A DNA stretch of 64,000 nucleotides from Callorhinchus milii (taxonomy: Eukaryota), in contig NW_024704742.1 of NCBI RefSeq assembly GCF_018977255.1, positions 138,634,001 through 138,698,000 of the forward strand, in the 5' to 3' direction. A program made the position numbers and the translations under genes. The notes under the pieces were generated by a model. It worked only from the letters and a program-made list of their open reading frames with translations, was not told where the DNA came from and did no database searches. Positions within the stretch are counted from its first letter, which is position 1, and the number at the start of each line of letters is the position of its first letter. Of this stretch, positions 4,471 through 48,082 are shown piece after piece.

Positions 4471-4630
4471 GGCGATTCAGAAAGATCGCTATTATGACCG
4501 CCATAACTGTGGTGTGTTCTGCTCCCCCACCACCATGAGCAGAGAGTGTAACGTCAATGGCTGTAGCAGCGCCTGTCAGGTGGGGGACTGGTCTTCCTGG
4601 TCACCCTGTGACCCCTGTGTCAGTAAACAG
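4471..4630 (+). CDS. C6: C6 exon (end of TSP1-1, start of TSP1-2)
   Basis: Acceptor ctcag|, peptide AIQKDRYYDRHNCGVFC...RECNVNGCSSACQVGDWSSWSPCDPCVSKQ, donor |gtacat. 160 nt, phase 2 to 0, compatible with the previous exon. Confidence 0.9.
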
Positions 4631-4882
4631 GTACATTACACCTTATATTATTATTCTATTGCAAACTGTACCCGTTACAGCTTCACTTGCGCCCAAAGGA
4701 TCCAATATGGAATGTACATTGACGGCTCGACGGTCATTTCATATTTATGCCCAAAATTAAGAGCGCAAAATACTGCAGAACACGGCTGGACGTCTGAAAA
4801 CAAAAGCAGACGTCGCTGGGAACACCCAGCAGGTCAGGCAGCATCTATGGAGAGAGGAAAGTGCGTCAATGTTTCGGGTCGT

Positions 4883-6086: not shown

Positions 6087-6749
6087 TACACTGTGCGTCC
6101 ACACTCCCGGGTCAGGGTTAGAGACAGTAACGCTCCTCTACACTGTGTGTCCACACTCCCAGGTCAGGGTTAGAGACACAGTAACGCTCCCTCTACACTG
6201 TGTGTCCACACTCCCAGGTCAGGGTTAGAGACAGTAACGCTCCTCTACACTGTGTCCACACTCCCAGGTCAGGGTTAGAGACAGTAACGCTCCTCTACAC
6301 TGTGCGCCCACACTCCCAGGTCAGGGTTAGAGATACAGTAACGCTCCCTCTACACTGTGTGTCCACACTCCCAGGTCAGGGTTAGAGACAGTAACGCTCC
6401 TCTACACTGTGTCCACACTCCCAGGTCAGGGTTAGAGACACAGTAACGCTCCTCTACACTGTGCGTCCACACTCCCAGGTCAGGGTTAGAGACAGTAACG
6501 CTCCTCTACACTGTGCGTCCGTCCACACTCCCAGGTCAGGGTTAGAGACACAGTAACGCTCCTCTACACTGTGTGTCCACACTCCCAGGTCAAGGTTAGA
6601 GACACAGTAAAGCTCTCTCTACACTGTGCGTCCACACTCCCAGGTCAGGGTTAGAGACACAGTAAAGCTCTACACTGTGTGTCCATACTCCCAGGTCAGG
6701 GTTAGAGACAGTAAAGCTCCTCTACACTGTGTGTCCACACTCCCAGGTC
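6087..6749. repeat. About 54-bp satellite (tacactgtgtgtccacactcccaggtcagggttagagacacagtaacgctcctc), about 12 units
   Basis: Tandem units visible. Same family as 13861-14870. Confidence 0.95.
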
Positions 6750-7100
6750 ACACTGACTCTCACTCTCTCTCACTCTCTCTCTCACTGACTCTCACTCACT
6801 CTCTCACTCTCACACTGACGCTCTCACTCACTCTCACACTGACTCTCTCTCTCTCTCTCTCACACTGACTCTCTCTCACTCTGACTCTCTCACTCACTCT
6901 CTTCTCACACTGACTCTCTCACTCTCTCTCTCACTGACTCTCTCACTGACTCTCACACTGACTCTCTCTCACACACACTTACTCTCTCACTCTCACACTT
7001 ACTCTCTCACTCTCACACTGACTCTCTCACTCTCTCACTGACTCTCTCACTCTCTCACACTGACTCTCACACTCACTCTCACACTGACTCTCTCACTCTC
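6750..7100. repeat. (ACTC/CT)-rich low-complexity tract forming the polypyrimidine region before the LDLa exon
   Basis: cactgactctctcact units. A similar tract lies at 11553-12158. Confidence 0.9.
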
Positions 7101-7104
7101 TCAG

Positions 7105-7246
7105 GACGGTGTGTGGCGCAGAAGCTGGTGTGTAATGGGGAGCACGACTGTGGAGACGGATCAGACGAGGATGGTTGTCAGCCGAGACGTCCAGCCTGTC
7201 CCCGGGTCGTGGAGCCCATCCCGAGTGTCCAGCTCATGGGCAGCGG
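7105..7246 (+). CDS. C6: C6 LDLa exon, copy 1
   Basis: Acceptor tctcag|, peptide [25 protein letters not shown]...[11 protein letters not shown], donor |gtagat. LDL-receptor class A signature DCxDxSDE. 142 nt, phase 1 to 2. Confidence 0.9.
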
Positions 7247-7479
7247 GTAGATGCCCCGACTCCACTCCCCACCACCCCCGTGCCACCCGCCACTCCCCCA
7301 CACACTCTCCCCATACACTCCACCCCATTCCTTGTGCCCCACACACACCCACCCCATCCCTGTACCTCTACCACGTGCCACCCCGCCACTCTCCCCGTGC
7401 CCCCCCCCAATCACTCTCTCTCACTTTACTCGCTCCCGGGCTCTGTCTCTCACGGTCTCACACACTCCCTCTCTCTCAG

Positions 7480-7611
7480 GTACAGTATGGTGTCTGGGGA
7501 GCTCCGGGGGAGGTGCTGAACAATGCCTATTACGGTGGTCAGTGTGACACTCGGTCACAGGGTCTGAAGCTTTACCGCCTGCCCAGCAACCTGCTGAACG
7601 TCAGCTTCCAG
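7480..7611 (+). pseudogene. C6: C6 first MACPF exon, copy 1, with a 1-nt frameshift in a G run
   Basis: YSMVSGELRG then a G5 run (G6 in copy 2) shifts the frame to a TGA. The rest, EVLNNAYYGGQC...YRLPSNLLNVSFQ|gtacgt, is intact in another frame. 132 nt against 133 needed. May be a homopolymer sequencing error. Confidence 0.7.
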
Positions 7612-9585
7612 GTACGTCCTGTAGCTCAGGGGTTCGAGCCCTCGCCTCGCAAGCGAGAGGACCTGGGCTCGATTCCCGGGCCGGGGGCGAAACCTTGGGC
7701 AAGTTTCCTTACCCCCCACCCCCCGCCCGCCGCCACGCGCCTCTGGTTACCAGCAGTCCGTAGGAACCCGGTTGGCGGTGGATTCGTGGATCACTTTCTG
7801 GGAATAATAATCCCCCACAAAAAAAAATGTGGCCACTGAATCCACGACTGTTTGTGGGACACTGCTGTGCACAATTGGCGGCCACAAAAGACAGTCACTA
7901 CACTTTACAGTGAAGCGCTTTGAGAGGTCTTGAAGACGTGATCAGGCGCTGTACCAAATACCGGGATTATTATTATCATCATCATCATCATCATCATGGC
8001 AGTTTGATCCCTTCTGACAGCCTCTGTGAGGAGTTTATGCCATTAGCTTATTACTGTAAGGCAGTGTGTGCGTGTGTGTGCGTGTGTGTGTGCGTGTGTG
8101 TGTGTGTGTGCGTGTGTGCGCGTGTGTGCGCGCGTGTGCGTGTGTACCTGTGTGTGTATGTGTGTGAGGCAGCTCAGTATTGCTCCTCTTTTAACAGTAC
8201 CCCTGGGTGGGGTGGGGGAGGAAGGGGGGTGTCTGGCCTCGGGCCTCTCTCACCGCCTCTCGCGCTCCCCTCACGCCTGACCGACTAACGGACGAACGCT
8301 CTCGCGCTTCCCGCCTTTCTGCACTGTTGGCGCAATGCGCACATCCCTGATCCTCGTGGGGGTGCGTGGTGGTGGGGGGGGGGGAAGGGGGAGTGAGTGA
8401 CCAGCAGTTGGGTGGGGAGGGGGTCGAGGCAGCAGGGGGTGAAGTTCATCCGGGTGATTGTGGTTGAGAGGGAGACGTCTTAAAGCGCTTCCACGGGATA
8501 TACCGTAGAGTGTAGTGACTGTGTATTTTGTGGGCTAAGCTCAGCAGCCAATGGCACGCAGCAGTGCCCCACAAACAGCCGTGGATTGAAAGGACCAATT
8601 TATTATTTTTTTGAAGGGTTTATTACCCCCGGAAAGCGATCCACCAATCAACTGACACCCGGGTTACGTACCGCCGGTAAACAGAGGTGTGTGGAGTAAG
8701 GAGACGTACCTAACGTTTGGTCCTCCCCGGGAATCGAACCCGGGTATCCTCGTTTGTGAGGCGACACCACCTGATCTATACATAGTATAATAATCTATAT
8801 GCAAGGATTATTATTATTATTATTATCATAGAATATATAGACTATTACGAAGACTGTGTGCAAATATAAACTGTATTTATTTACATGTAATTAAATAGGA
8901 AAACCCAATGATTAACTCCACACTCCATCACACCGTCCTCACCCTCACTCTCACCCTCACCCAATCCTCACCGTCAACCCCACCCTCACCAGACTCCACA
9001 CACCCATACCCCCACCCCCCACCCCCCGCCCCACCCCACCACTGCACTGCTACCTCTGGTAAGTGTACAACGAAACCACATTCCCCCATCCTCTGGGAGT
9101 CTCTTCCCAAATGTGTGACTGTGTATATCCCTGTGTCACTGTGTAGCTATGTCGCTGTGTGGCTGCGTACGTGTTCTCTGTAGCTCTGTGTAGCTGTGTC
9201 TCTGTATGTCGCTGTGTACTCTGTGCGGCTGTGTACGTGTCTCTGTATCTCTGTGTAGCTGTGTCTCTGTCTGTCGCTGTGTACTCTGTGCGGCTGTGTA
9301 CGTGTCTCTGTGTTTCTGTGTGGCTGTGTGACTGTGTGGCTGTGTAGCTATCACTGTGTGTCTGTACAGCTGTGTCTCTGTGGCTGTATGTCTGGCTGTA
9401 GCTGTGTCTCTGTGTAGCTGTGTCTGTCTCTCTGTGTACGTGTAGTTGTGTCTCTGTGTAGTTGTGTCTGTGTCGCTGTCTCTGTGTAGCTGTGTCTCTG
9501 TAGCTTGTCTTTGTAGCAGTGTCTGTGCAGCTGTGTGTCTGTGTAGCTGTGCTGTGTGGCTGTGCTGTGTGGCTGTGCGGTGTAG

Positions 9586-11552: not shown

Positions 11553-12161
11553 TCACTGACTCTCACTCTCTCTCACTCTCTCTCTCACTGACTCTCACTC
11601 ACTCTCTCACTCTCACACTGACTCTCTCACACTGACGCTCTCATTCACTCTCACACTGACTCTCTCTCTCACACTGACTCTCTCACTCACTCTCTCACTC
11701 TCACACTGACTCTCTCTCACACTGACGCTCTCACTCACTCTCACACTGACTCTCTCTCTCTCTCTCACACTGACTCTCTCTCACTCTGACTCTCTCACTC
11801 ACTCTCTTCTCACACTGACTCTCACTCTCTCTCTCAGTGACTCTCTCACTCTCTCACACTGACTCTCTCTCACACACACTTACTCTCTCACTCTCACACT
11901 TACTCTCTCACTCTCACACTTACTCTCTCACTCTCACACTGACTCTCTCACTCTCACACTTACTCTCTCACTCTCACACTTACTCTCTCACTCTCACACT
12001 TACTCTCTCACTCTCTCACTGACTCTCACTCTCACACTTACTCTCTCACTCTCACACTGACTCTCTCACTCTCTCACTGACTCCTTCACTCTCTCACACT
12101 GACTCTCTCACTCTCACACTGACTCTCTCACTCTCTCTCTCACTGACTCTCACTCTCTCAG

Positions 12162-12303
12162 GACGGTGTGTGGCGCAGAAGCTGGTGTGTAATGGGGAGC
12201 ACGACTGTGGAGACGGATCAGACGAGGATGGTTGTCAGCCGAGACGTCCAGCCTGTCCCCGGGTCGTGGAGCCCATCCCGAGTGTCCAGCTCATGGGCAG
12301 CGG
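12162..12303 (+). CDS. C6: C6 LDLa exon, copy 2 (duplicate of 7105-7246)
   Basis: Sequence and splice sites appear identical to copy 1. Confidence 0.7.
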
Positions 12304-12537
12304 GTAGATGCCCCCGACTCCACTCCCCACCACCCCCGTGCCACCCGCCACTCCCCCCACACACTCTCCCCATACACTCCACCCCATTCCTTGTGCCCCA
12401 CACACACCCACCCCATCCCTGTACCTCTACCACGTGCCACCCCGCCACTCTCCCCGTGCCCCCCCCAATCACTCTCTCTCACTTTACTCGCTCCCGGGCT
12501 CTGTCTCTCACGGTCTCACACACTCCCTCTCTCTCAG

Positions 12538-12670
12538 GTACAGTATGGTGTCTGGGGAGCTCCGGGGGGAGGTGCTGAACAATGCCTATTACGGTGGTCA
12601 GTGTGACACTCGGTCACAGGGTCTGAAGCTTTACCGCCTGCCCAGCAACCTGCTGAACGTCAGCTTCCAG
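12538..12670 (+). CDS. C6: C6 first MACPF exon, copy 2 (intact)
   Basis: Acceptor ctcag|, peptide YSMVSGELRGEVLNNAYYGGQCDTRSQGLKLYRLPSNLLNVSFQ, donor |gtacgt. 133 nt, phase 2 to 0. Confidence 0.75.
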
Positions 12671-13008
12671 GTACGTCCTGTAGCTCAGGGGTTGAGCCCT
12701 CGCCTCGCAAGCGAGAGGACCTGGGTGATTCCCGGGCGGGGGCGAAACCTTGGGCAAGTTTCCTTACCCACCCCCGCACCTCTGGTTACCAGCAGTGTAG
12801 GGAACCCGTTGGGTGGATTCGTGGATCACTTTCTGGGGTAATAATCCCCCCAAAAAATATTGGCACTAATCCACGACTGTTTGTGGGACACTGCTGTGCA
12901 CAATTGGCGTGCCCGCCAAAAAAGTCACTACACTTTACTAGTGAAGCGCTTTGAGACGTCTTGGAGACGTGATCAGGCGCTGTATCAAATACAAGGATTA
13001 TTATTATT

Positions 13009-13040
<32 letters not shown>

Positions 13041-13860
13041 GGCAGTTTGATCCCTTCTGACAGCCTCTGTGAGGAGTTGAGTGACCAGCAGTTGGGTGGG
13101 GAGGGGGTCGAGGCAGCAGGGGGTGAAGTTCATCTGGGTGATTGTGGTTGAGAGGGAGACGTCTTAAAGCGCTTCCACGGGATATACCGTACAGTGTAGT
13201 GACTGTGTATTTTGTGGGCTAAGCTCAGCAGCCAATGGCACGCAGCAGTACCCCACAAACAGCCGTGGATTCAAGGGACCAATTTATTATTTTTTTGAAG
13301 GGTTTATTACCCCCGGAAAGCGATCCATCAATCAACTAACACCCGGGTTACGTACCGCCGGTAAACAGAGGTGTGTGGAGTAAGGAGACGTACCTAACGT
13401 TTGGTCCTCCCCGGGAATCGAACCCGGGTATCCTCGTTTGTGAGGGGAGACCACCTGATCTATACATAGTATAATAATCTATATGCAAGGATTATTATTA
13501 TTATTATTATTATCATAGAATATATAGACTATTACGAAGACTGTGTGCAAATATAAACTGTATTTATTTACATGTAATTAAATAGGAAAACCCAATGATT
13601 AACTCCACACTCCATCACACCGTCCTCACCCTCACCCTCACCCTCACCCAATCCTCACCGTCAGCCCCACCCTCACCAGACTCCACACACCCATACCCCC
13701 CACCCCCCCACCCCCCGCCCCACCCCACCGCTGCACTGCTACCTCTGGTAAGTGTACAACCAAACCACATTCCCCCATCCTCTGGGAGTCTCTTCCCAAA
13801 TGTGTGACTGTGTATATCCCTGTGTCACTGTGTAGCTATGTCGCTGTGTGGCTGCGTACC

Positions 13861-24142: not shown

Positions 24143-24172
24143 NNNNNNNNNNNNNNNNNNNNNNNNNNNNNN
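24143..24172. other. Assembly gap (30 N)
   Basis: Run of n. Confidence 1.
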
Positions 24173-28976: not shown

Positions 28977-29106
28977 CTCCCTGGGAGAGGCCGAGGATCA
29001 CTGAGTGCCGCTCTCCCGAGCAGGAGACCTTTACGTGCCGATGGAGTGCAGGGAACTACCCTAACCTGACGGGACCTGGCAGCCTCACGTTTTTTTACTC
29101 TAAAGG
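28977..29106 (+). CDS. GHR: GHR distal module A, exon-4 equivalent (start of FN3 D1)
   Basis: Acceptor tctcag|, peptide PWERPRITECRSPEQETFTCRWSAGNYPNLTGPGSLTFFYSKG, donor |gtgagt. CRSPExETFxCxW motif. 130 nt, phase 1 to 2. Confidence 0.85.
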
Positions 29107-30298
29107 GTGAGTGATGGAGCCGTGATCTCCAGCCTTGGGGGCTTGATGTGTCTTCATTCAGCCTGAGACAAGCTGGCTCAGGCAAGCCTGAGACACACAC
29201 AGGGAGAGAGACTGAAAAACAGGGCCATTTACACACAACCACATGGACCTTCTCCTGCCCTGCACCCTCTCCCCTTCCCTCCTCACCGCTTCCCTCACCT
29301 CCTCTCCTCCTCACCTTTTCTCTCACTTCCTCCTGCTGCCTCCACTCGACTAGCTCTGGCCTTCTGCATGTCCCTCGTGCCTTCCGTTTCGTGCCTTGGG
29401 ATGTCCTTTGATGTGAAGGGCGCGATACAAATGTAAATTGTTGTTGTTCCATCTTTGGTGGTCGCACTTTCAGCCCCGAAACTCTGGATCTCTCTTCTAT
29501 CCCTCTGCCTTGCCCCTTCCCTCCACATCTTCAGGTCGTTCCTGAAGACATTCCTCTTCGACCGTGCCTACGGTCACCTCCACCCGGCTCGGTGTCGTAC
29601 TCCATCACTGTCAAGCTCTCTGGGATGCTAACTTGCGAGAGGGGCGCTGTGTAAATACAAATTGTTGTTGTTATCTCCCTCCCTCCCCCCACCCCAACGT
29701 TGGGCAAGTTTCCTTACTCCACACGCCTCTGTTTACCCAGCAGTAAGTAAGAACCCGGTTGTTAGTAGATTGGCGATCGCTTTTAAGGGAATAATAATCC
29801 CTTCAAAGAAAAGAAATGTGGTCACTCAATCCACGACTGCTTGTGGGTCACTGATTAGCGAGGTTGGCTGCCGTGTTTCGCTGCAAAACGCACAGACACC
29901 ACACTTTACAGTATACTCTGTGAAGCGCTTTGATGACGTGATCAGGTGCTGTATCAAATGCAAGGATTATTGTTATTATTATTGTTATAATTATTATTGT
30001 TATTATGATAATGATCCTGGGCCTGGAAAAGCAGGACTTTATGTTAAGAGGAAGCTCAGACCCGCTCAGGACACAGTCACAAACACTGGACACCGTGGAG
30101 ACGTGAGGGACCTTCACTCTTAGGACTTTCCGAGTCCAGAAACTCTGGACAGACAAACATCGGGGAGAAAGCTACTCCGCAGCCCGGCACGTTCTCAGGC
30201 AGCTTCGTGATCAGTCCCAGTCACACCCCCTCCCCAGGTCCAGGTCAGCACAAGCCACATACTACTCTGAGCTGTTTCTTCTTCCCCTACATCTCCAG

Positions 30299-30456
30299 GG
30301 TAGACCAGGAGTGGAGCGAGTGCCCTCATTACCTGGACGCAGGGATCGGCTGCCACCTGAACCAGAGCTACACCTCGGGGTCTGGTGTCCAGTGTGTGCA
30401 ACTGAGAGCACACAACAGTACACTGGAGCAGCAGTGCTTCACCATCCAGGACATCG
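30299..30456 (+). CDS. GHR: GHR module A, exon-5 equivalent
   Basis: Acceptor ctccag|, peptide VDQEWSECPHYLDAGIGCHLNQSYTSGSGVQCVQLRAHNSTLEQQCFTIQDI, donor g|gtaaat. 158 nt, phase 2 to 1, 4 conserved Cys. Confidence 0.85.
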
Positions 30457-30999
30457 GTAAATACGCCACTGAGTGTCCACAACAGGCAACCATCTGCTGC
30501 GCTCCTCAGCCAACGCTCAGCCAACACTCTGGCTGACACATTCACTTGTCAAGTCTGTAGCTCAGTGGTTAGAGCTCTCACCTTGCAAACGAGAAGACCC
30601 GGGTTCGATTCCCAGGCAGGACAAAACCTTAGGCAAATCTCTCTCTCTCTGTATCATGCTGTCTCTCTCTGCCTCTCTCTGTATCTCTCTCTGTACCCTG
30701 CTCTCTCTGTCTCTCTGTACCCTGCTCTCTCTGTCTCTCTGTACCATGCTCTCTCTCTGTACCCTGTTCTCTGTCTCTCTGTACCCTGTTCTCTCTGTCT
30801 CTGTGCCCTGTTCTCTCTGTCTCTCTGTACCATGCTCTCTCTCTGTACCGTTCTCTCTGTCTCTCTGTGCCCTGTTCTCTCTGTACCATGCTCTCTCTCT
30901 ATACCGTTCTCTCTGTCCCCTGTTCTCTCTGTCTCTCTGTACCATGCTCACTGTGTCCCTCTGTTGTCTGTCCCTCTCCTCACTCTCTGGTTTTGGCAG

Positions 31000-31178
31000 T
31001 GAGGCCGGATGCCCCTGTGGGCCTGACCTGGGCTCTGCTCCACATCACCCAGACGGGCCGCTTGATGAACGTGGAGCTGTGGTGGGAGCCTGGTGGCAGC
31101 GGAGAAGCCAGCTCAGCCCGCAGCCCTTGCTACTACCAGCTCCAGTATAAACACTGGGAGGCTGAGCAATGGCAAATG
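31000..31178 (+). CDS. GHR: GHR module A, exon-6 equivalent (start of FN3 D2)
   Basis: Acceptor ggcag|, peptide VRPDAPVGLTWALLHITQTGRLMNVELWWEP...YYQLQYKHWEAEQWQM, donor |gtacgt. 179 nt, phase 1 to 0. Confidence 0.85.
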
Positions 31179-31611
31179 GTACGTCTCAGTGAATGTTACC
31201 CTGGTGTCACACGCCCAGCCAATCTGCTGTGCCGGAGGCGGGGGAGGGGGATAGGTCATTTGTGTGGACTGATGATAATGTGTGGCGTCCTGTACAATAT
31301 TAGAATATTGGTTAGAGCCCTCACCTCACAAACGAGAAGATCTGGGTTTGATTCCTGGGCAGGGAGAAACCTGAGGCAAGTTTCCTTACTCCACACACTT
31401 CTGTTTACCAGCAGTCATTAGAAACCCGGTTGGTAGTCGATTGGTGGATCACTTTTCTGAGAGTAAATAATCCCTGTAAAATAAATAAATAATTTGGTCA
31501 GTCAGTCCACAACTGTTTGTGGTCTCAACAACGTGATATAGCGCTGTATCAACTGCAAGGATTATTATTACGAGTGTTCAGCAGTGAGCTGGGGTACTGA
31601 GGCCCATCGTG

Positions 31612-32468
31612 CCAGGCTGAGTGTCTGGAGGCTGAGTGTCTGGAGGCTGAGTGTCTGGAGGCTGCAGTGTCTGGAGGCTGCAGTGTCTGGAGGTCGCAGT
31701 GTCTGGAGGCTGAGTGTCCGAAGGCCGCAGTGTCTGGAGGCTGAGTGTCCGAAGGCCGCAGTGTCTGGAGGCTGAGTGTCCGAAGGTCGCAGTGTCTGGA
31801 GGCTGCAGTGTCCGAAGGCCGCAGTGTCCGGAGGTTGCAGTGTCTGGAGGCTGAGTGTCTGGAGGCTGCAGTGTCTGGAGGTCGCAGTGTCTGGAGGTCG
31901 CAGTGTCTGGAGGCTGAGTGTCCAGAGGTTGCAGTGTCCGGAGGCCGCAGTGTCCGGAGGCCGCAGTGTCCGGAGGTCGCAGTGTCTGGAGGCTGAGTGT
32001 CTGGAGGCCGCAGTGTTTGGAGGCCGCAGTGTCTGGAGGCCGCAGTGTCTGGAGGCCGCAGTGTCTGGAGGCTGCAGTGTCTGGAGGCCGCAGTGTCCGA
32101 AGGCTGCAGTGTCCGAAGGCTGCAGTGTCCGAAGGCTGCAGTGTCTGGAGGTCGCAGTGTCTGGAGGTCGCAGTGTCTGGAGGCTGCAGTGTCCGGAGGT
32201 CGCAGTGTCCGGAGGCTGAGTGTCTGGAGGCCGCAGTGTTTGGAGGCCGCAGTGTCTGGAGGCCGCAGTGTCTGGAGGCCGCAGTGTCTGGAGGCCGCAG
32301 TGTCTGGAGGCCGCAGTGTCTGGAGGCCGCAGTGTCTGGAGGCCGCAGTGTCTGGAGGCCGCAGTGTCTGGAGGCCGCAGTGTCTGGAGGCCGCAGTGTC
32401 TGGAGGTCGCAGTGTCTGGAGGCTGCAGTGTCTGGAGGCTGCAGTGTCTGGAGGATGCAGTGTCTGGG
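31612..32468. repeat. 15/16-bp minisatellite (ggaggccgcagtgtct)
   Basis: Tandem units visible. Source of the 328 aa and 332 aa spurious ORFs. Confidence 0.95.
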
Positions 32469-33580
32469 GGTAGTGTAGTGTATCCTGTAGTGGAGTGGTT
32501 AGAGCACTCGCAAGATTCAAGCCCAAGCAGGGCAAAAAGTTGGGTCAGTTTTCTTACTTCACACACCTCTGCTTTCCGGGGGTAATAATCCCTTCAAAAA
32601 AAATCCACAACTGCCGCGTCTCACCCACAAAAATATACAATCAATTCACTTTACAGTATATTCTGTGAAGCGCTTAGAGATGTCTCGAAGATGTGATAAA
32701 GCGCTATATCAAATGCAAGGATTATTATTATTATAATAAGAATGGAGCAGACTGGGAAAAATGTGAGAAATTCCCACCAGAGGATAGGATTAACCTTTGG
32801 CTCTTTGATCTCATTCTCCCAGAATGTGCGGTCTCCTGTGCTCTCACACAGCACTCAGCTGTTTCTTACACGAATGGTTAATTCCGCACCCTGTGTAAGA
32901 ACATAGCTGCTGGTACCTGTCTTTAAGTTATATTTCCCGCCAATGACCCTGTGTCCTCTAGCTGACCGCCTGTATCTGAGAGGATTTCTTGTCATTTATT
33001 TAAAGGTCAATATTGAGCCGAAATAGCGGGGTGTTCCTGCCACTTTATAAATCACTGATGCGACCGAACTGTGAATACAGTGTACAGTTCCAGTCACCGC
33101 AATATAAAAAGGATATTGCAGTGATTGAGAGGATAGAGGTGGGCAACCAAAATATAATAACAACAATAATCTTGGTATTTGATATAGCGCCTTTTCAGGT
33201 CTTCGAGACGTCTTAAAGCACTTCACAGGACATACTATAAAGTGAATTGACTGTATAATTTGTGGGCGAAATGATTGAGGGGATGGAGGGACTGGGCTAC
33301 AAGGAGCGATTAGGTAAACTGGGCATGTTCACACTGGAGAAGAGAAGGTTGAGGGGAAATATGATCATGGTCTTAAAGCTTCTGAAAGATATAGATGATG
33401 TAGACCATGATAAGCAAGGGAGACGGTGGAAGCAGAAAGTGTCATTTGTTTCAAGAACAAATTAGATAGATTCTGTTAAAAAATAAACTATACAATATGT
33501 TTGGTGCCTAGCAAATTCTTATGTTTTTATTTACTCTCACTATTGTCCTTGCCTTTTGCTGAATTCTCATAATTTTACAG

Positions 33581-33743
33581 ATCGAATCGTTGCTGATCCA
33601 ACACCCTCCACAACCGATCCACCAGCTTGCCACAGGGGAACACTATGAGGTGCGGCTGCGATGCAGGTATCTCAATGTGGGTAACTTCAGTGATTTCAGC
33701 AAGACCATCGATGTCTTCCTGCCCATCCCACAGTCAATAGAAG
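33581..33743 (+). CDS. GHR: GHR module A, exon-7 equivalent
   Basis: Acceptor ttacag|, peptide IESLLIQHPPQPIHQLATGEHYEVRLRCRYLNVGNFSDFSKTIDVFLPIPQSIE, donor g|gtgaga. YEVR motif and FSDFS (WSXWS equivalent). 163 nt, phase 0 to 1. Confidence 0.85.
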
Positions 33744-33759
33744 GTGAGAGAGCACATCA

Positions 33760-34215
33760 AGGACTTCAAGGGTTAAATTTTGAGAACAGGTTGCATAAAC
33801 TCGGTCTGTATTCCCTTGAGTTTAGAAGGTTGAGGGGTGATCTGATTGAGGTGTTTACCATGATAAAGGGATTCGATAGGCAGCAACAGAGAAACTAATG
33901 CCTCTGGTGGAGAATCCAGAACAAGGGGTATCATCTTAAAATTAGAGCTGGGCCATTTAGCAGTGAAATCAGAGGCAGTTTTTCACCCAAAGGCCAATGG
34001 GAATCAGGAACTCTCTCTCTCTCTTCCCCAAAATGCTGGATCCATTCACATTTTTAAGACTGATGTGGATAGATGTTTGTTAGGTCAGGGAATCAATCAA
34101 AGGATATGGGGCAAAGTCAGGTAATTGGAGTTGAGGTACAGATCAGCCATGATCTTATAAAATGGCAGAACAGGCGCGAGGGGCTGAATGGCCTCATTCT
34201 GTTTCTATGTTTCCA
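33760..34215 (+). mobile_element. CR1 LINE 3' fragment
   Basis: [31 protein letters not shown], ending in a tctatgtt tail. Confidence 0.8.
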
Positions 34216-35294
34216 AGGTGTAAGTGAAAGCTTGTGCTGAATACTCCAATCGATTTCCACAAATATATATAAAGAATGTTGTTTCCACACTTCAATATCT
34301 AAAAGTGCACTATGAATGCACAGTGTGATAGGATACAGTGCCGGTCAGATACAATAGGGCAGAGAGCAGGCAATGGGGTTAGAGCAGAGAGCTTCAGTGG
34401 GGGAGCGAGCACCAGCACAGACACGATGGGGCGAGAGAGAGAGAGAGAGAGCAGGGAATGGGGTTAGAGTAGAGAGATCCAGTGGGGGAGCGAGCCCCAG
34501 CACAGACACGATGGGGCGAGAGAGAGGGAGCAGGGAATGGGGTTAGAGAGCTCCAGGGGGGATATGTGTTGAATGACCTCCATCTATTCTGTATTTAAGA
34601 GCCTCAGATGCTAGCCCATGTGAAGATGCTGCATAAATGCAGTTGTTGTATTATCTAAGATTCTTTGGAGTGGTGACAAATAATATAATAATAATTCTGG
34701 CATTTGCTATAGCTATCGAGATATTGCAAAGCACTTTACGGGATATACTGTAAAGTGTAGTGAATGTATATTTTATGGGCAAAACAGGCAATGGTGCACT
34801 CACAAAAAGCAACAACAAAAACTTGCATTTATATAGCGTCCTTCACACAGGGTAGAGTCCCAAAACACTTAACGGTGGTGGAGTCTGACGGCGAGCTGGG
34901 GAGGTGACCCTAAGCACAGTTGATGTGGAAGGTCTTTAGTCGTGATCTAAAAAAGGGGAAGGAGGGGCAGGATGGAGGGATTCAGGGAGAGAGTTCCAGA
35001 GTTTTGGGGCGTAGTGGCCGAAAGTGCGGCTGCTGATGGTGAAACGGAGGGGATGAGGGACAAACGAAGCCGGAGCCAGCCGAGCGGAGGCAGTGGGTAG
35101 AGGAGTGAGGGGTGAGTAGGTCAGAGATGTGGGGAGGTGCCAAGGTGTGAAGGGATTTGTAGATGAGTGTGATCGTGAAAGCAGTGTCTTGTGATTGTGA
35201 TTATTGGCTTGTAAGTACAATACAGCAGGGAGGGGGTGAGTGTGGGAGCCAGTGCTGGCGCTGGGTGACCTGTCTTCTCTGTGTCTCCTCTCAG

Positions 35295-35424
35295 CTCCCT
35301 GGGAGAGGCCGAGGATCACTGAGTGCCGCTCTCCCGAGCAGGAGACCTTTACGTGCCGATGGAGTGCAGGGAACTACCCTAACCTGACGGGACCTGGCAG
35401 CCTCAAGTTTTTTTACTCTAAAGG
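35295..35424 (+). CDS. GHR: GHR proximal module B, exon-4 equivalent
   Basis: Same as 28977-29106 except acg to aag (T to K). 130 nt, phase 1 to 2. Confidence 0.92.
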
Positions 35425-36967
35425 GTGAGTGATGGGGCCGTGATCTCCAGCCTTGGGGGCTTGATGTGTCTTCATTCAGCCTGAGACAAGCTGGCTCAGG
35501 CAAGCTTGAGACACAACAAGGTCATACACTTATCATCAGAACCTGAGAAATATGATAATTGTTTTTAAGAGTCAAAACACGTCTGAGTATGGTGACTACT
35601 CTTAGTCATACTCTACATCTGTGCTGTGGTTCACTCGGCTTTCCCTCTCTGCCACAACATGGAGTCCTGTAGCTCAGTGGTTAGAGCCCTCGCCTCACAA
35701 GTGAGAGACTTGGGTTCAATTCCCAGGCAGGGCGCAACCGTAGGCAAATTTCCTTACTCCACACACCCTTGTTTACCAGCAGTAAGTAGTCAATTGGCGG
35801 ATTGCTGTTCCGGGGATAATATCCCTTCTAAAAAAAAATTAGGATTGTTTGTGGGACGCTGCTGTGTGCAATTGTGTTTCACCTACAAAATATCCAGTCA
35901 ATTCACTTTTGTATATCCTGTGAAGCGCTTTGAGACGTTTCGAAGATATGATAAGGCGCTGTATCAAATGCAAGGATTATTATTATTATTAACATTGCGT
36001 CCGCCACAAGCTCACCTCCCGGTAACTGAGGCCCTCACCCATGCCTTGATTGTGCCAACACTGCTCTTCCCTTCACAAGCTGCAGACAATCCAGAACTCT
36101 GCAGACCATGTCCTCTCCCCCACCTGGCTTAATGAACCTATCACCCCCATAACTCTCTTTACCTGGAGCAGGTAGCGTCTCAGAGCGCTTAGATACAGAA
36201 CAACCTGAGGTTGTTCTTGGTCTCCAGGATGATCTGACAATGGAATCCTGTAGTGTAGTCGTTAGAGCACTCACCTCGCAAGATTCGAGCCCAGGCAGGG
36301 CGAAATGTTGGGCAAGTTTCCTTATTTCACACACCTCTGTTTTCCGGGGGTAATAATCCCTTCACAAAATATTGGTCACTCAATCCACGACTGTTTGTGG
36401 GACACTGCTGTGTGCAATTGACTGCTTCGTTTCGCCCACAAAATACAGTCAATTCACTTTACAGTATATTCTGTGAAGCGCTTTGAGACGTCTCAACGAC
36501 ATGATGAGGCGCTATATCAAATGCAAGGATTATTAGTATTATATACCTCTTTGACAAGACTTATAGCCATCTTCCGAGTTGTGCCTTGCTCAGCACCGAG
36601 CCCAGTATTTGTGAGGTGTTGTGAACAGTTATCCTAAGTGAAGGGCACCACTCCATAACTGTAAGGTGTTGTCAGGTCGCGGGCGCTGTTCACAGAGGGC
36701 TGTCACCATGTCAGGATAACCTCTGGAACACCCTCTCTCTGTCCCTCCACCTTGCCCCTTGCTTCCCCATCTTCAGGTCGCACCTAAAGAACTTTCTCTT
36801 CACCCGTGCCTAAGTCACCTCCCCCCGGCTCGGAGTTGTGCTCCGCCACCGTCAAGCGCTCTGGGACACTACCCTGCATGAGGGGCGCTGTATAAATTTA
36901 AGTTGTTGTAAAATGTGCTCTAATCGGGGTTAGAATCACACACTTACTGACTGAGACATCTGTTTAG

Positions 36968-37137
36968 AATGAATGCTGGTTGGAAGGAGTGTCCTCAGTA
37001 CGTGAGCGGAGAGAGTGGCTGCTACTTTAACCAGAGCTACACCTCTATTTGGGTGCCTTACTGTGTGCAGCTCAAGTCAGACATTCAGCAGCAGAACATC
37101 ACCTTCGACAGAAGATGCTTCTCCATCGACAACATTG
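36968..37137 (+). CDS. GHR: GHR module B, exon-5 equivalent
   Basis: Acceptor tttag|, peptide [37 protein letters not shown]...[11 protein letters not shown], donor g|gtaaaa. Canonical TSIWxPYC. 170 nt, phase 2 to 1. Confidence 0.95.
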
Positions 37138-37695
37138 GTAAAAACAACCAGTTTCCATACTCCCAGTGTCAATGTCCACACTTCCAGTGTCCACACTCCC
37201 AGAGTCCACACTCCCAGTGTCCACACTCCCAATGTCAGTGTTCACACTCCCAGTGTCCACACTCCTAGTGTCAGTGTTCACAACTCCAGTGTCAGTGTCC
37301 ACACCCCCAGTGCCATGGTCTACACCCGCAATGCCATGTTCCACACCGCCAGTGCCAGTGTCCACACTCCCAGTGTCAGTGTTCATACTCCCAGTGTCCA
37401 CACCCCCAGTGCCAGTGTCCCACCCCTAGTGCCAGTGTCTACACCCCCAGTGTCAGTGTCTACACTCCTGGTCACTGTCCCGGGGTAATAATCCCTTGAA
37501 AATAATAATTTGGTCATTCAATCTATGACTGCTTGTGGGACCACTGTGCACAATTGGCTACCGTGTTCTTTTTGCGTATATTCTGTGAAGCGCTTTGAGA
37601 TGTCTCAACAACATGGTAAGGTGCTATATCAAAGGCAAGGATTAGTGTCCGCACTCCTGGTGTGTACCCACACTGCATTTTCCCATTTTTCTCAG

Positions 37696-37874
37696 TGAAA
37701 CCGGATCCGCCGATCGCTTTGAACTGGACACTACTGAACATCAGCCAGTCGGGGCTGCTTGCAGACATCCAGCTGTTCTGGCAGCCTCCGCCCACGGCAG
37801 ACATCAGGAATGGGTGGATCTCCCTGCAGTATGAAATCCAGTACAAACTCAGAGAGAGCCTTCACTGGGAGTCC
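37696..37874 (+). CDS. GHR: GHR module B, exon-6 equivalent
   Basis: Acceptor ctcag|, peptide VKPDPPIALNWTLLNISQSGLLADIQLFWQPPPTADIRNGWISLQYEIQYKLRESLHWES, donor |gtaagt. 179 nt, phase 1 to 0. Confidence 0.95.
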
Positions 37875-38859
37875 GTAAGTCATCAGCAGCCTTTGCCTAA
37901 ATGACATTTTATTCACTTAAGTCCTGTAGCTCTTGATTAGAGCACTCACCTCGCAAGCGAGGGACCTGGGTTTGATTCCCGGGCAGGGTGAAATGTTGGT
38001 CAAGTTTCCTTACTCCACAACCCTCTGTTTACCTAGCAGCAAGTAGGAACCTGGCTGGTTGTTAGTCGAGTGACGGATCGCTTTCCTGGGGGAATTAATC
38101 CCTTCAAAAAACAAATAAATAATAATTTGGTCTCTCAAACCACGACTGTTTGTGGGACACTACTGAGCACAATTTGTTGCTGCGTTTCGCCTACAAAATA
38201 CGGTCACTGCACTTTACAGTTTTGAGACGTCTCATTAACATGGTAAGGCACTATTTCAACTGCAAGGATTATTATTCTTATAATGTGATGTGTATCACCA
38301 CAGCCCAAACCCCAATCCCATTTACTCATCCCATATCTTCTGCGTTTCCTATTCAATTTACCTCCTTTTGAAGCTTTGCTTTCTGAATATTCTTTGTGGT
38401 ATAAAGATCCTACAAATCAACAGTCATTACATTTTGTAACAATTGCCCGTTCTGTACTCTGAGACATTTCAATGTTAGGGGTGATGTATTATATGCAGGG
38501 ATTATTTATTTATTTTTATCAGCACCATATTTTCCAAAATCCAGCAGTTGTCCCAACGCACACTCTGGAGTCCCCAAGCCTTGGCTCTTGCCAACCTGCG
38601 CCTAATAGTCTCCGGAATTAGATAAGCAGGGTGGGTTCCTTCAGGGAGACAGTGTGCATTCCATTCAAATACACGGAAATTTCCATGTATAGGTGGGATG
38701 CATTGAACTCTCACTCTTATTTGGATACTCTTAAGCACGGTGATTGGTTTGTGTGTGTCAGACATCTGGCTGACCATAAAAAAAATTCCAACCCTCATAA
38801 TGCCCTTATAATCTTAAATATCTCAGCTGCATCTGCCATCAGCTCTACTAATCTCTAGT

Positions 38860-40045
38860 CAAGACAGAGGCCCTCCTACTTGGCTCCTGGCATTGCCTCC
38901 TCACCTCAGCCACTGATTTATGGCTGCTCTCTTCACCTCACCAATCTGAAACTGCAGTGTCTTTTTCGACCCTCAGCTATTCTTCAAACCCCTTATTTGT
39001 GCCATGACCAGTTCTGCCTTTCCCCACCTCCACCACTGCCTCTCACCGCAGGCCACTGAGACCCTGATAAATGCTTTCATCACATCCCGGCTTGACTACG
39101 CCAACTGTCTGCTCACTGGGCTTCCCAACTCTTCCCTCCACAAGAGGCAGATTATTCAGAACAGCTAGTGTCCTCTCTCGCTCCAGGCTCCGGGAACCTA
39201 TCACCCCTGTTCTTGCCCGGCTTCACCGGCTCCCAATTCCTCAAAGAATCGAGTACAAAATCCTCGTTCTTACCTTCAAGGCCCTCCATGGTCTTGCTCC
39301 TTCCATCTCTCCGACCTCCTGTCCACTCAGCCTGTCCGCTCCCTCCGCTCAGTGGGCACCGGCTGCTTCAGGTTCCTCGCACTTCCTGCCCCACCATTTG
39401 CGGTCTGGCATTCAGCATCTCTGCCCCACAATCTGGAACTCTTATCGTGCAATCCCTCTGCCTCACCCCCTCTCTTGCCTCCTTCAAGTCCTGTCTGAAG
39501 ACCTTCTCTTCGACTGTGCCTTCAGTCATCCTTCCATCCCCACCATCCCTGCCGCCTCCCCTTCTGATCCCAACTCACAGCTCGGGTCCAAAACCCAATT
39601 GTCCAGCATGTTGGGACATCTTTCCGATGTGAAGGACTCTATACAAATGTAATTTGCTTCTTCTTACCTCTGTGACCTGCTAATGCCATATCAACCTGTC
39701 TGCTTCCTCTGTTCAGCAGGCTTCGGCCTGCTCCACAACCCTGTCCAGCCCTCCCCACCATCGGTGGTCGGGCCTTCAGCCTCTCTGACCCCACCCTGTG
39801 GAACTGCATCCCAGTCCTGCCCCTTCGCTCCTTCCCTCAGCTCCTTCAAAGCCCATCTGAAGACCCTCCTCTTCGACTGTGCCTTTGGTCACCCTCCTAC
39901 CCCTACCCTCCCTGCCCTCCAACCCTCCTGATCCCAACCCCCAGCTCGGGTCTAAATCCCTGACTGTCCAGCATCTTGGGACGTCCTCCCAATGTGAAAG
40001 GTACCGTCTAATTGTAATGTGTTGTTAATGTAAAGTTGTTGTTAT
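38860..40045 (+). mobile_element. Two tandem degenerate L2 3' fragments
   Basis: ITPVLARLHRLPIPQRIEYKILVLTFKALHGLAP, with 3' tails at about 39650 and about 40040. Confidence 0.75.
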
Positions 40046-40051
40046 TGACAG

Positions 40052-40205
40052 ATCGTTGCCTTGTCGACCTCACACCCAGTCTATGCGCTCACAACTGGCA
40101 GGAAGTATCAGATCCGTCTGCGATGCAAACAGATTGCCAACAGGGATTTCAGTGAGTTCAGTGACACTGTTCACGTCTTCATCCCCAAACCAACGTCAGC
40201 AGAGG
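40052..40205 (+). CDS. GHR: GHR module B, exon-7 equivalent
   Basis: Acceptor tgacag|, peptide IVALSTSHPVYALTTGRKYQIRLRCKQIANRDFSEFSDTVHVFIPKPTSAE, donor g|gtgagt. FSEFS motif. 154 nt, phase 0 to 1. Confidence 0.92.
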
Positions 40206-40490
40206 GTGAGTCATTCCCACCAACAGTTGTAAACTTCATTGCTGAATTTCATAGCATAGGAGGCCATTCAACTGTGAATCTCACTGTTTGCTTTGTGCAT
40301 TCACTGTTGATCGCGGACTTCTGTAGTGGTTACAGCTCTCGCCCTCACAAGCGAGAGGACCTGGATTTGATACACAGTCACAACACTTAGTAATTCCTGT
40401 AAACCAACTTCGCGCACACCTCTCCTCCCACTCCCTCTTCGAACCCCTCTAGTCCGGTTTCCGCCCACAGTTCAGAGACTGCACTTGTCT

Positions 40491-42793
40491 TGCTCTTGCC
40501 CCCATCACTTCCCGCACTGTCTCCTACTCCCGCTCCTCCCCCTGGTACACCACCCACCTCCGCTCACTGAAAAGCCAGGTGTTGGCCGCTGAACGCACCT
40601 GTGTCAAATCTGGCCTAACGGTCCACCGACAAATCTGGCTGGACCTCCTCAAAATTTACCGCTCCACTCTAGCCTCGGCCAAGTCGTCCTTCTACTCCAG
40701 GATAATCCTGGAGGTGAAGAACAACCCCAGGCTACTGTTTTCCACCACAACCCGACTCCTCCGTCCCCCCCGCCACCCCGCGCAGGTCATCTCCTCCAAC
40801 CTTCACTGCGAGGAGATGCTGGATTTCCTTGAATCCAAGATCAAGGGAATTCGCTCCGCGGTCACTTCCCCTCCAACATCCACCAACCCCCCACCCCCTC
40901 ACTCCCACACTCCGACTGCTACCCATCCTCCCCTACTCACGTTTGTACCCGTTTCCCCACCCTCTGTCACTAAACTCATCCTATCCCTAAAACCAACCAC
41001 CTGCTACCTTGACCCCATCCCCACTCCACTCCTTATCTCCCAGCTCCACTTTCTTGCCCCACATATCTCCGACATCATCAACCTGTCCCTCTCCTCTGGC
41101 TCTGTCCCCATTCCCTTAAAAACTGCCACCATCACGCCCACCCTGAAAAAACCCTCCCTTGATGCGTCGCAGCTATCAAGCTACCGGCCCATCTCCAACC
41201 TCCCCTTTCTCTCCAAGGTCCTGGAAAGAGTTGTCGCCTCCCAACTGCGCTCTTTCCTTTCCACCCATTCACTTTTCGAACCCCTTCAGTCAGGTTTCCG
41301 TGCTGCCCATAGCACAGAAACTGCCCTGGTCAAGGTCACCAATGATATCCTGACCATCTGTGACCAGGGCTCCCTCTGCCTCCTCGTCCTCCTCGACCTA
41401 TCGGCAGCATTCGATACGGTCGACCACGCTATCCTACTCCACCGCTTGTCCTCCCACCTCAACCTTCAAGGCACTGTCCTTGAATGGTTTAGGTCGTACC
41501 TTTCTCACCGTCTTCACTTTGTCTCGACGAATGGCTTCTCCTCCACCCCCCGTACTGTCTCATGTGGTGTCCCTCAGGGCTCTGTCCTCGGTCCCCTCCT
41601 CTTCACCCTCTATATGCTCCCCCTTGGTGACATCATCCGCAGACATGGAGTTAACTTCCACATGTATGCGGATGACACCCAACTCTACCTTTCCTCCTCT
41701 ACTCTCAACTCCACGACCACCGATGTCCTGACAGCTGCCTGTCCGACATCGAGTCCTGGACGAGAGACAACTTTCTTCAGCTCAACGTGCGAAAAACCGA
41801 GGCCCTCCTGATTGGCTCACGTCAGCGCCTCCGCACCTCAGGCGCTGACACCATCAGCATCCAAGGCTGCACTCTCCACCTCTCAAAGCCAGTCAGGAAC
41901 CTCGGCGTTTTGTTCGACCCTGAGCTGTCCTTTCTCCCTCACATCCGCACCACAACTGGCACCGCCTTCCATCACCTCCGGAACATCGCCAGACTACGGC
42001 ACTACCTCACCCCTCACGCTGCTGAAACCCTGGTTCACGCCTTTGTCACCTCAAGGCTGGACTATGGGAACTCTCTCCTCGCCGGCCTTCCCGCCACCTC
42101 CCTCCACAAGCTGCAGGTCATTCAGAACTCTGCAGCTCGTGTACTGTCCCGCACCAGGCTTCGGGACCACATCACTCCCACCCTCGCTCGCCTCCACTGG
42201 CTCCCCATCCCCCAGAGGATTGATTTCAAGATCCTCATCCTCACCTACAAGGCCATTCACGGCCTTGCTCCCTCCTACCTCTCCAACCTACTATCCCCCT
42301 ACCTACCTGCCCGTACCCTCCGTTCCTCTGGCTCCGGTCTGCTCCACGTCCCCCGCCCCAACCGCCCTACCATCGGTGGTCGGGCCTTCAGCCTCTCAGC
42401 CCCAGGCTCTGGAACTCCATCCCCCAGTGCCTTCGCCGCTTCCTCCCTTTCCTCCTTCAAGGCCGGTCTCAAAACCTTTCTCTTTGACCGAGCCTTCAGC
42501 TCCCCTCTCGACTCTCTTCCCCCTCCTCGCTCCCTCCCTTCCCTCCCCTCACCCTGACCATTTCCCCCCTCCTCGCTCCCTCCCTTCCCTCACCCTGACC
42601 ATTTCCCCCCTCCTCGCTCCCTCCCTTCCCTCCCCTCACCCTGACCATTTCCCCCCTCCTCGCTCCCTCCCTTCCCTCACCCTGACCATTTCCCCCCTGC
42701 TCGGGTCATGACCCAACTGTGCAGCGCCTTGGGACGTCCTCCTGACGTGAAAGGCGTTTTATAAATGGAATCTTGTTGTTGTTGTTGTTGTTG
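40491..42793 (+). mobile_element. Young 5'-truncated L2-clade LINE with near-intact reverse transcriptase (two 1-nt frameshifts near 41733 and 42404)
   Basis: [49 protein letters not shown] and YADDTQLY motifs. Tandem 40-45 bp repeats in the 3' UTR and a (GTT)n tail. Confidence 0.95.
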
Positions 42794-45313: not shown

Positions 45314-45404
45314 AAGCAGGATTCCTGCTCAGGCTGATCCTTATATTCGTGTCATTGGGTGTGGCTGCAGTTTTGCTACTGATCCTGTTCACTAATAACC
45401 AAAG
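45314..45404 (+). CDS. GHR: GHR transmembrane exon
   Basis: Acceptor ttacag|, peptide EAGFLLRLILIFVSLGVAAVLLLILFTNNQR, donor |gtatgt. 91 nt, phase 1 to 2. Confidence 0.93.
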
Positions 45405-45665: not shown

Positions 45666-45735
45666 GCTGAAGGTGCTGCTTCTTCCTCCTGTCCCTGTGC
45701 CCAAAATCAAAGGCATTGATCCGGAACTTTTGAAG
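45666..45735 (+). CDS. GHR: GHR Box1 (JAK2-binding) exon
   Basis: Acceptor tatag|, peptide [23 protein letters not shown], donor |gtaatg. 70 nt, phase 2 to 0. Confidence 0.95.
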
Positions 45736-47113: not shown

Positions 47114-48082
47114 AAAGGTAAAATCAATGAGGTGAACTCCATTTTTGCCAACCACCTGAGCTATAAAGCTGAGCTGTACGCCGATGACCCCTGGGTGGAA
47201 TTTATTGACGTTGACCTTGAGGATTCTGACAGGAAGACAGAAGGGTCAGATACAGACAGACTCCTGGCTTGTGAACACCCCACGTCTGATCCCTGCCTGA
47301 GCATCAAGGATGATGACTCGGGCCGCGACAGCTGCTACGAAGCAGATGTTTTTGATGTCGATCTCACTAGTGGGAGAAAAAGCACCAGTATATCAGCTGC
47401 TCAGCAATTGGAAACCAGTGGTGAGAGAGAGGGATCCCTGGTGAGTCTGAGCGAGGGAACGCCTATAGGCAAGAATAGTATAGATCTGAGAGGCACCGAG
47501 TATCTGGAGGCCGATGATTGTGGCACGGGTAACTTCGAGCTGATGACTGTGGATAGCAGACTTGCGACAGTGAGTGATAAAGTGTCTGACCACAAGCCCA
47601 GCACACACAGCCAGCTCTGCAGCCAGAGTTCCTTTGGCAACATGGACTTCTACGCCCAGGTAAGCGACATCACTCCAGCAGGAGGGGTCCTGCTTTCACC
47701 TGGGCAGCAGAGCAGAATGGAGGCACCACTGAGAAAAGAGGCAAAGGGAGCCCAGAGAACCAAAGCACCCGATAGTGCCTACACATCCAAATTGGACACG
47801 AAACAGCTGTGTTCCTTGGATGCTCCAAATGAGCAGAGAATGGCGGATCTGGAGAGGAATCCGAATTGTTATCTGATGGTGGACAGCCTTGACAATGCTG
47901 TGGCCAGGTCCTGTAAGGAAGCAGAGAGTGCAAGGCAGCTGCCTGTACCGGACTATACCTCCATTCACATGGTGGACTCTCAGCACAGCCTCCTGTTGAA
48001 CCCAAACGTTCTGCCCAGCAAGAGCCAACCTACCCCTGCTGAATACTTGATGCCTGAGCAACTTGGCAATGTCATGCCATGA
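47114..48082 (+). CDS. GHR: GHR last exon (cytoplasmic domain)
   Basis: Acceptor ttacag|KGKINEVNSI. Contains DDPWVEFIDVD (UbE/Box2-like), DDSGRDSCYE (DSGxxS degron), MDFYAQVSDITPAG..LSPGQ, PVPDYTSIH, and the C-terminus EQLGNVMP*. 969 nt. Confidence 0.96.
   Translation, partial: KGKINEVNSIFANHLSYKAELYADDPWVEFIDVDLEDSDRKTEGSDTDRLLACEHPTSDPCLSIKDDDSGRDSCYEADVFDVDLTSGRKSTSISAAQQLETSGEREGSLVSLSEGTPIGKNSIDLRGTEYLEADDCGTGNFELMTVDSRLATVSDKVSDHKPSTHSQLCSQSSFGNMDFYAQVSDITPAGGVLLSPGQQSRMEAPLRKEAKGAQRTKAPDSAYTSKLDTKQLCSLDAPNEQRMADLERNPNCYLMVDSLDNAVARSCKEAESARQLPVPDYTSIHMVDSQHSLLLNPNVLPSKSQPTPAEYLMPEQLGNVMP

Follow-up and report, generated by a model that had tools for sequence, protein, structure and literature searches.

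The growth hormone receptor of the elephant shark carries a second, distal cytokine-receptor module shared with other cartilaginous fishes

We analysed a 64,000-nucleotide stretch of the genome of the elephant shark Callorhinchus milii (contig NW_024704742.1, positions 138,634,001 to 138,698,000 of the forward strand), here called the window, whose own numbering is used for all coordinates. It holds a growth hormone receptor (GHR) gene in which the extracellular cytokine-receptor module is present twice, as a membrane-distal module A and a membrane-proximal module B. Module B has the canonical hormone-site tryptophans whereas module A of C. milii lacks them, and the comparison with other species points to a single duplication on the cartilaginous-fish stem. 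We consider it moderately probable that module A is a non-binding regulatory cap, a reading based on sequence and on analogy with other cytokine receptors. The doubling as such is already known for this lineage, a point that a preliminary description of the DNA had left open: duplication of the exon string of the cytokine-receptor homology (CRH) region is reported for whale-shark GHR, for chicken and anole prolactin receptor (PRLR) and for TPOR in PMC12284397, citing Ocampo Daza and Larhammar 2018, and the latter paper may hold much of the present findings. Full-text searches, which mostly did not extend to subscription journals, found no paper that describes the doubling in the elephant shark, the loss of the hot spot, the gene conversion or the frog duplications treated below.

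The gene model comprises 11 exons on the plus strand, numbered after human GHR, all of them preceded by AG and the first ten followed by GT. Spliced together they give an open frame of 796 amino acids plus a stop codon, with no internal stop. Module A (630 nt) consists of exons 4A (28977-29106, 130 nt) and 5A (30299-30456, 158 nt), which encode the first and second halves of domain D1, and exons 6A (31000-31178, 179 nt) and 7A (33581-33743, 163 nt), which do the same for D2. Module B (633 nt) consists of exons 4B (35295-35424, 130 nt) and 5B (36968-37137, 170 nt) for D1 and exons 6B (37696-37874, 179 nt) and 7B (40052-40205, 154 nt) for D2. The exon phases are 1-2-1-0-1 in both modules, and the block of exons 4-7 has phase 1 at either end. 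The model continues with the transmembrane helix (exon 8, 45314-45404), the proline-rich Box1, i.e. the JAK2 site (exon 9, 45666-45735), and the cytoplasmic domain with the stop codon (exon 10, 47114-48082). The two exon sets of the preliminary description, with their GT-AG sites, phases and lengths, are all borne out by this model.

The gene is GHR, as it had been named at the outset, and the elephant shark has no other GHR gene. Exon 10 matches PF12772 (E 3.4e-73) and is 100% identical to P0001, a protein labelled Callorhinchus milii GHR, and the named hits among the 120 matches listed are GHR except for two hypothetical proteins. A GHR-type cytoplasmic domain, a single transmembrane helix and Box1 are all present. 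GHR has an (F/Y)GEFS-like motif replacing WSXWS (PMC5816795, PMC6997183), and in this position exon 7A reads FSDFS and exon 7B FSEFS. The cysteines of the three D1 disulfides (equivalents of C38, 48, 83, 94, 108 and 122) are found in both modules; in other words, the cysteines and the FSDFS motif of module A are intact, as first reported. With its two modules the gene departs from the one-module canonical architecture, and it is a GHR by orthology. Exon 7A is single-copy in the genome, while exon 4 has two genome matches, both within GHR. Both public models of C. milii GHR are without exons 4A and 5A: P0001 begins inside 6A, and P0327, which also includes 6A, has an intronic TC repeat as its N-terminus.

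RNA was checked in 4 of 14 listed sequencing runs over positions 33450-37140; no run is recorded as RNA, and the type of a contig is seen from its spliced joints. A 660-nt contig from X1 and X5, i.e. two of the three putative RNA runs and two samples of one study (P1), equals spliced 4A-5A-6A-7A-exon 4 (63+158+179+163+97 nt). It opens with exon-4 sequence up to the donor, including the letter specific to 4A, and the first 18 letters of 5A directly after it. Then come 335 letters that fall outside 33450-37140, exon 7A letter for letter, and 97 nt of exon 4; the joint between 7A and exon 4 is flanked by 162 and 99 letters. The 5A-6A and 6A-7A joints, and with them exon 6A, are inferred from the length of the contig. 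Exon 4 is joined to 5B in separate contigs of X1, X2 and X5. RNA-type contigs show the chains 4A-5A-6A-7A-exon 4 and 4B-5B, and a full linear chain is favoured because the contig depths of A and B are nearly equal in two samples (109 vs 112 and 28 vs 26, a hint only) and because two transcript-like single contigs from batoids (P0014 and P0016, 3732 and 4027 nt) contain both modules in line. In run X2 exon 7A is uncovered, which proves nothing by itself, and there is no A contig. In the X2 exon-4 contig 18 letters at the upstream end are unplaced, and its start lies one base further on than a 7A joint would put it, which is a weak hint of a leader-4-5B form that skips module A. At 35392 in exon 4B the RNA-type contigs of all three runs differ from the reference by a synonymous letter, either a polymorphism or a polishing error.

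The hormone-site residues were compared in human numbering, transferred by aligning to 1A22. Site 1 draws most of its binding energy from Trp104 and Trp169, and Trp104 also takes part in site 2 (PMC5816795). Tryptophan is missing from the 104 loop, encoded by exon 5A in C. milii, in module A of all 21 scorable species, whereas it is present in module B of all 22 species and in 21 of 21 single-module GHRs. At position 169 of module A, which lies in exon 6A, 7 of 15 rows have Trp, another 7 have Arg and 1 has His; C. milii has Arg and consequently lacks both tryptophans, and its 104 and 169 loops differ strongly from those of elasmobranchs. Module B of C. milii has the equivalents of Trp104 (exon 5B) and of Asp164 and Trp169 (exon 6B), and both tryptophans of module B are kept in every species. 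The earlier view of module A as an intact second hormone-binding module is not supported on these counts. Exon 7A moreover encodes two A-specific features, a PPQP insertion (22 of 22 species) and an N-x-S sequon at position 221, just before FS(D/E)FS. The sequon, N-F-S in C. milii, occurs in module A of 21 of the 22 species, in none of the 22 B modules and in none of the 83 readable single-module GHRs (of 86). Since the distal module is without Trp104 and has this sequon, growth hormone most likely binds the proximal module only.

The AlphaFold2 model of the white-shark orthologue shows four beta-sandwich domains, in keeping with the four FN3 domains first proposed, as well as the transmembrane helix; in structure it is closest to human GHR among the matches. 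Most 10-residue blocks have pLDDT values of 70-90, with about 60 for the loop of module A around position 169; the packing of the domains is unsure because the whole-chain pTM is 0.37. When shark module A and shark growth hormone were modelled as a complex, without alignments or folded controls, the prediction scored 0.00 and carries no weight either way.

The distribution of the extra module was surveyed by a profile of single-module GHRs against the 120 listed matches, i.e. 17 cartilaginous-fish entries and 103 others. Extra-module sequence is present in all 17 cartilaginous-fish entries among these matches. When cluster members are added the number of named cartilaginous-fish species rises to 22, every one of them with the extra module and none with a single-module receptor; the conservation of module A across these fishes thus holds. 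Two complete modules are found in 20 of the species, and module A is partial in the models of Scyliorhinus canicula and Rhinoraja. The entries of coelacanth, lungfish, bichir, gar, lamprey and hagfish are single-module. A search with exon 6A returned only P0001 among 8 candidates, and no second holocephalan was found. Two short elasmobranch products (P0129 and P0137, a Logan contig and a catshark model) stop after exon 6A, and a Mobula isoform (P0010) is without D2 of module B; these are possibly truncated or spliced forms, or incomplete models.

A module tree was calculated from exons 5-7 of 69 modules from 45 proteins, hand-picked from the 120 matches plus the window; exon 4 was omitted because of the conversion discussed below. 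All 15 cartilaginous-fish A modules, including that of Callorhinchus, form one clade (100/99), and the A and B modules together form another (100/100). The exact place of Callorhinchus A is less sure as it sits on a long branch, and it shares the A-specific PPQP and sequon. In a second tree (38 rows, LG+G4) with PRLR, CRFA4-like, lamprey and hagfish outgroups, both modules fall within the GHR clade (100/99). Run with both GHR and PRLR modules, the comparison foreseen in the preliminary description places module A inside GHR as the sister of cartilaginous-fish B. Together with the single-module lamprey and hagfish entries, the trees therefore point to one duplication on the cartilaginous-fish stem.

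The amino acid identity of modules A and B is 38/39 in exon 4, 25/52 in exon 5, 21/60 in exon 6 (the same count as first reported) and 22/50 in exon 7. For exons 5-7, dN is 0.48 and dS 1.38 over 163 codons, rough figures because the comparison is pairwise between paralogous modules and near saturation. In a simulation of neutral substitution (n=5000) exons 5-7 stayed free of stops in 0.6%, 0.2% and 0.08% of the cases at distances of 0.3, 0.5 and 0.8, respectively. Both results agree with the constraint on module A that had been suggested before.

The near identity of exon 4 extends into the introns. The segment 28687-29197 (plus strand), i.e. about 290 bp of repeat-derived upstream intron, exon 4A and about 90 bp of downstream intron, is 98.2% identical over 511 columns to 35008-35515 (plus strand), which surrounds exon 4B and is the probable donor. 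Outside this tract the introns of A and B share dispersed repeats only. The two tracts are no assembly echo, because a contig of run X9 has the letters of the 4A copy and runs on into unlike DNA. To judge from these alignments, the exon 4A block is a recent gene conversion in the holocephalan line. The start of exon 4A resembles elasmobranch 4B and not the shorter elasmobranch 4A, so the conversion likely went from B to A. In elasmobranchs exon 4 of module A is 59-79% identical to the B of the same species; Callorhinchus has 97% to its own B vs 79% to the best B of another species. Concerted evolution of exon 4 as a general feature of elasmobranchs was also considered and is not borne out, since identity to the own B exceeds that to the best other-species B in 0 of 12 rows.

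The scenario that we favour can be outlined as follows. To judge from the trees, the block of exons 4-7 was duplicated once on the cartilaginous-fish stem, and the mRNA would carry both modules in tandem. Judging by the conserved residues, growth hormone would bind module B, close to the membrane, in the manner of the human 1:2 complex, and the signal would pass through the single transmembrane helix, Box1/JAK2 and the cytoplasmic tail. The distal module A would fold as two FN3 domains, but with the loss of Trp104 it would have given up canonical hormone binding, and a glycan has probably been added near the hinge. Module A may have been kept as a structural and regulatory cap which most likely damps ligand-free pairing or alters hormone access and surface residence, this being the weakest step of the scenario. 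In the holocephalan line exon 4A has recently been overwritten, probably from 4B. A regulatory role would be consistent with the retention of module A in all species examined and with its near-invariant A-specific motifs, and it is suggested by analogy with the leptin receptor and TPOR.

Several known receptors can be set beside this one. Whale-shark GHR has the same duplication, with both modules and the same A-specific motifs in Rhincodon P0342 (814 amino acids); the elephant shark differs in being a holocephalan with a faster module A, both tryptophans lost and exon 4 converted. Bony-vertebrate GHR, such as the human protein (PDB 3HHR, 1A22, 1HWG), corresponds to module B, the transmembrane helix, Box1 and the cytoplasmic domain and gives the best sequence and fold matches, but it has one module only. 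MPL/TPOR likewise has four FN3 domains in two tandem modules of which one binds, and its non-binding hinge is glycosylated (PMC10850085). However, the distal module is the binding one in MPL while the conserved site appears to be proximal in shark GHR, and the duplication is independent; deletion of the distal TPOR module leads to constitutive signalling (PMC10850085). A two-module TPOR-like gene is also present in the elephant-shark genome (L020-L021, G000:C5:20.009-20.015 Mb). The leptin receptor has the polarity proposed here for shark GHR, with a non-essential distal CRH1 and a binding proximal CRH2 (PMC12284397), but it belongs to the gp130 group, has Ig and extra FN3 domains and arose by an unrelated duplication. 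In sauropsids PRLR, the sister receptor, has likewise had a block of exons duplicated in tandem (PMC5249103, PMC6997183), as seen for example in Anolis PRLR (P0144); it is a different gene, and the distal module of Anolis PRLR, as aligned, keeps tryptophan at both hot-spot positions. Full-text searches brought up no study of what the distal module of avian PRLR does.

A number of observations weigh against a regulatory cap, or at least against parts of the scenario. Among elasmobranchs module A changes faster than module B (74% vs 86% conserved in exons 5-7), and the Callorhinchus branch in the tree of exons 5-7 measures 0.94 for A and 0.15 for B. Elasmobranch A modules retain Glu44 in 13 of the 13 rows with the site, Asp164 in 12 of 15 and Trp169 in 7 of 15. 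The A contig comes from one study (P1) and is not seen in run X2. As for the junction of the two modules first proposed, the joining of 7A to exon 4 was confirmed (X1, X5), but the joint cannot separate exon 4B from a back-splice to 4A because the first 97 nt of the two exons are identical. That residue 221 lies close to the hinge and the hormone site is an assumption. Finally, of the frame of about 797 amino acids plus leader described earlier the frame stands, but tblastn, hydrophobicity and a profile built from 15 elasmobranch leaders revealed no leader exon either in the window or in the 30 kb upstream of it; the profile reached a score of 10 at most, while true leaders score 61-89. An assembly gap of 30 N at 24143-24172, upstream of exon 4A, is the likely place of the missing exon.

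The faster evolution of module A also fits a passive passenger, i.e. a module that was fixed early and has been kept since because its folding is needed for delivery to the surface, with no effect on signalling. We hold this to be unlikely, though it is the best of the alternatives. The long Callorhinchus branch, the toggling of position 169 between Trp and Arg, the tolerated overwriting of exon 4 and the possible A-skipping form in run X2 would all suit it, and CRH1 of the leptin receptor is non-essential as well (PMC12284397). Yet a phase-symmetric block could drop out cleanly and has nevertheless been kept in all 22 species, the PPQP and sequon motifs are near-invariant, and among elasmobranchs module A is as conserved as the cytoplasmic domain (74% and 71%).

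Somewhat more doubtful is the possibility that a remodelled surface gives module A a ligand site of its own, be it for growth hormone at low affinity, prolactin, prolactin 2, somatolactin or a partner protein, which would make the receptor bispecific or TPOR-like. The persistence of Glu44, Asp132, mostly Asp164, and Trp169 in half of the rows is consistent with this idea, as are the acidic replacement of the 104 loop, conserved in elasmobranchs, the several hormone-family genes in the genome and the binding role of the distal module in TPOR (PMC10850085). A lineage-specific change in the hormone may speak for it as well: cartilaginous-fish growth hormone is without 8 residues (5 of 5; L011:1495-1695, minus strand, and P0275-P0280) that are present in the aligned bony vertebrates (deletion in 0 of 21). 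Against a remodelled site stand the consistent absence of Trp104, the loss of both tryptophans in C. milii with 104 and 169 loops unlike the elasmobranch ones, and the full canonical site in module B.

It is very improbable that module A of C. milii arose through misassembly, is a relic in decay, or is produced solely as circular RNA alongside an mRNA with one module. The 511-bp near-identical block, the rough upstream assembly with its gap and duplicated blocks, the ambiguity of the 7A joint between 4A and 4B and the deviating RNA letter at 35392 would be compatible with such an origin. However, exons 5-7 are old (dS 1.38) and orthologous to shark A, in line with the earlier rejection of an artefact; moreover, the X9 contig has a 4A copy with its own flank, the depths of A and B are near-equal in two samples, and the batoid contigs encode both modules in line. 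As to a captured remnant of a neighbouring PRLR or CRFA4 gene, the common chromosome of GHR and PRLR in jawed vertebrates (PMC6997183) and the failure of genome searches to find a PRLR locus in C. milii could be cited in its favour, but module A has the GHR-type motif instead of WSXWS and nests in GHR beside cartilaginous-fish B. A tree constrained to unite 8 A rows and 6 PRLR rows is worse by 58.5 log-likelihood units (p-AU 6e-8), and we discard this origin. Two weak matches to the GHR module profile, at C1:123.4 Mb and C21:8.76 Mb, were not accepted as PRLR. A Pristiophorus protein with a PRLR-like label (P0154) falls outside PRLR, in a group (97/89) that it forms with two unnamed WSXWS receptors, and is possibly CRFA4, a receptor that may be lost in cartilaginous fish (PMC6997183).

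Outside the cartilaginous fishes, extra module sequence was found in 11 of the 103 entries among the matches listed, i.e. in 8 frogs (some with 2.5 or 3 modules), 2 lizards and, in part, 1 turtle (P0042, P0059, P0071, P0073, P0113, P0029, P0085, P0053, P0094, P0110 and P0092); these duplications are known from predicted proteins alone. The tree separates events in neobatrachian frogs (A 97/90, B 95/85), in Spea with three modules, in Hemicordylus and in Anolis sagrei, while the GHR of Anolis carolinensis has a single module. As aligned, Trp104 is missing from the distal modules of neobatrachians (5 of 5) and of Spea (2 of 2), with one Hyperolius row having a Trp one column away. The young copy of Anolis sagrei is identical at 184 of 205 positions and retains both tryptophans. 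Nine songbird entries with split matches were rejected as duplications, as they have internal deletions instead. One may speculate, though we would not expect it to hold, that a ligand-blind regulatory cap has evolved repeatedly through duplication of the GHR ectodomain, with at least five origins (cartilaginous fishes, neobatrachian frogs, Spea, Hemicordylus, Anolis sagrei), in which older distal copies converge on the loss of Trp104; in the elephant shark the twin acceptors 4A and 4B left by conversion might then switch between capped and uncapped receptors by tissue, with different growth hormone sensitivity.

The remainder of the window contains the 5' part of a gene on the plus strand (2365-2505, about 4500-4660, 7131 and 12188) with a signal peptide, two TSP1 starts and LDLa, which we take to be complement C6-like from its domain order. 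Its LDLa exon is present twice, within duplicated blocks (6748-8035 vs 11810-13078, 89.6%; 8390-9170 vs 13073-13859, 97.5%), and its MACPF exon was not found on contig NW_024704742.1. Within GHR, a LINE reverse-transcriptase-like element of about 2.2 kb, as read from the sequence, occupies 40400-42700 in the intron between exons 7B and 8, a 16-bp tandem array (31620-32467, 53.6 copies, 89% matches) lies in the 6A-7A intron, and many SINE copies are scattered throughout the gene.

If the proposed reading is true, growth hormone signalling in cartilaginous fishes would depend on a four-domain receptor that already existed when chimaeras and sharks split and has been retained ever since. Work on shark growth would then have to use the four-domain form; both public elephant-shark models have the wrong N-terminus. 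Why a cytokine receptor should duplicate the module is an open question for TPOR (PMC10850085). The independent GHR duplications are of varied age, from the near-intact copy of Anolis sagrei to old copies without the hot spot, and may serve as natural replicates.

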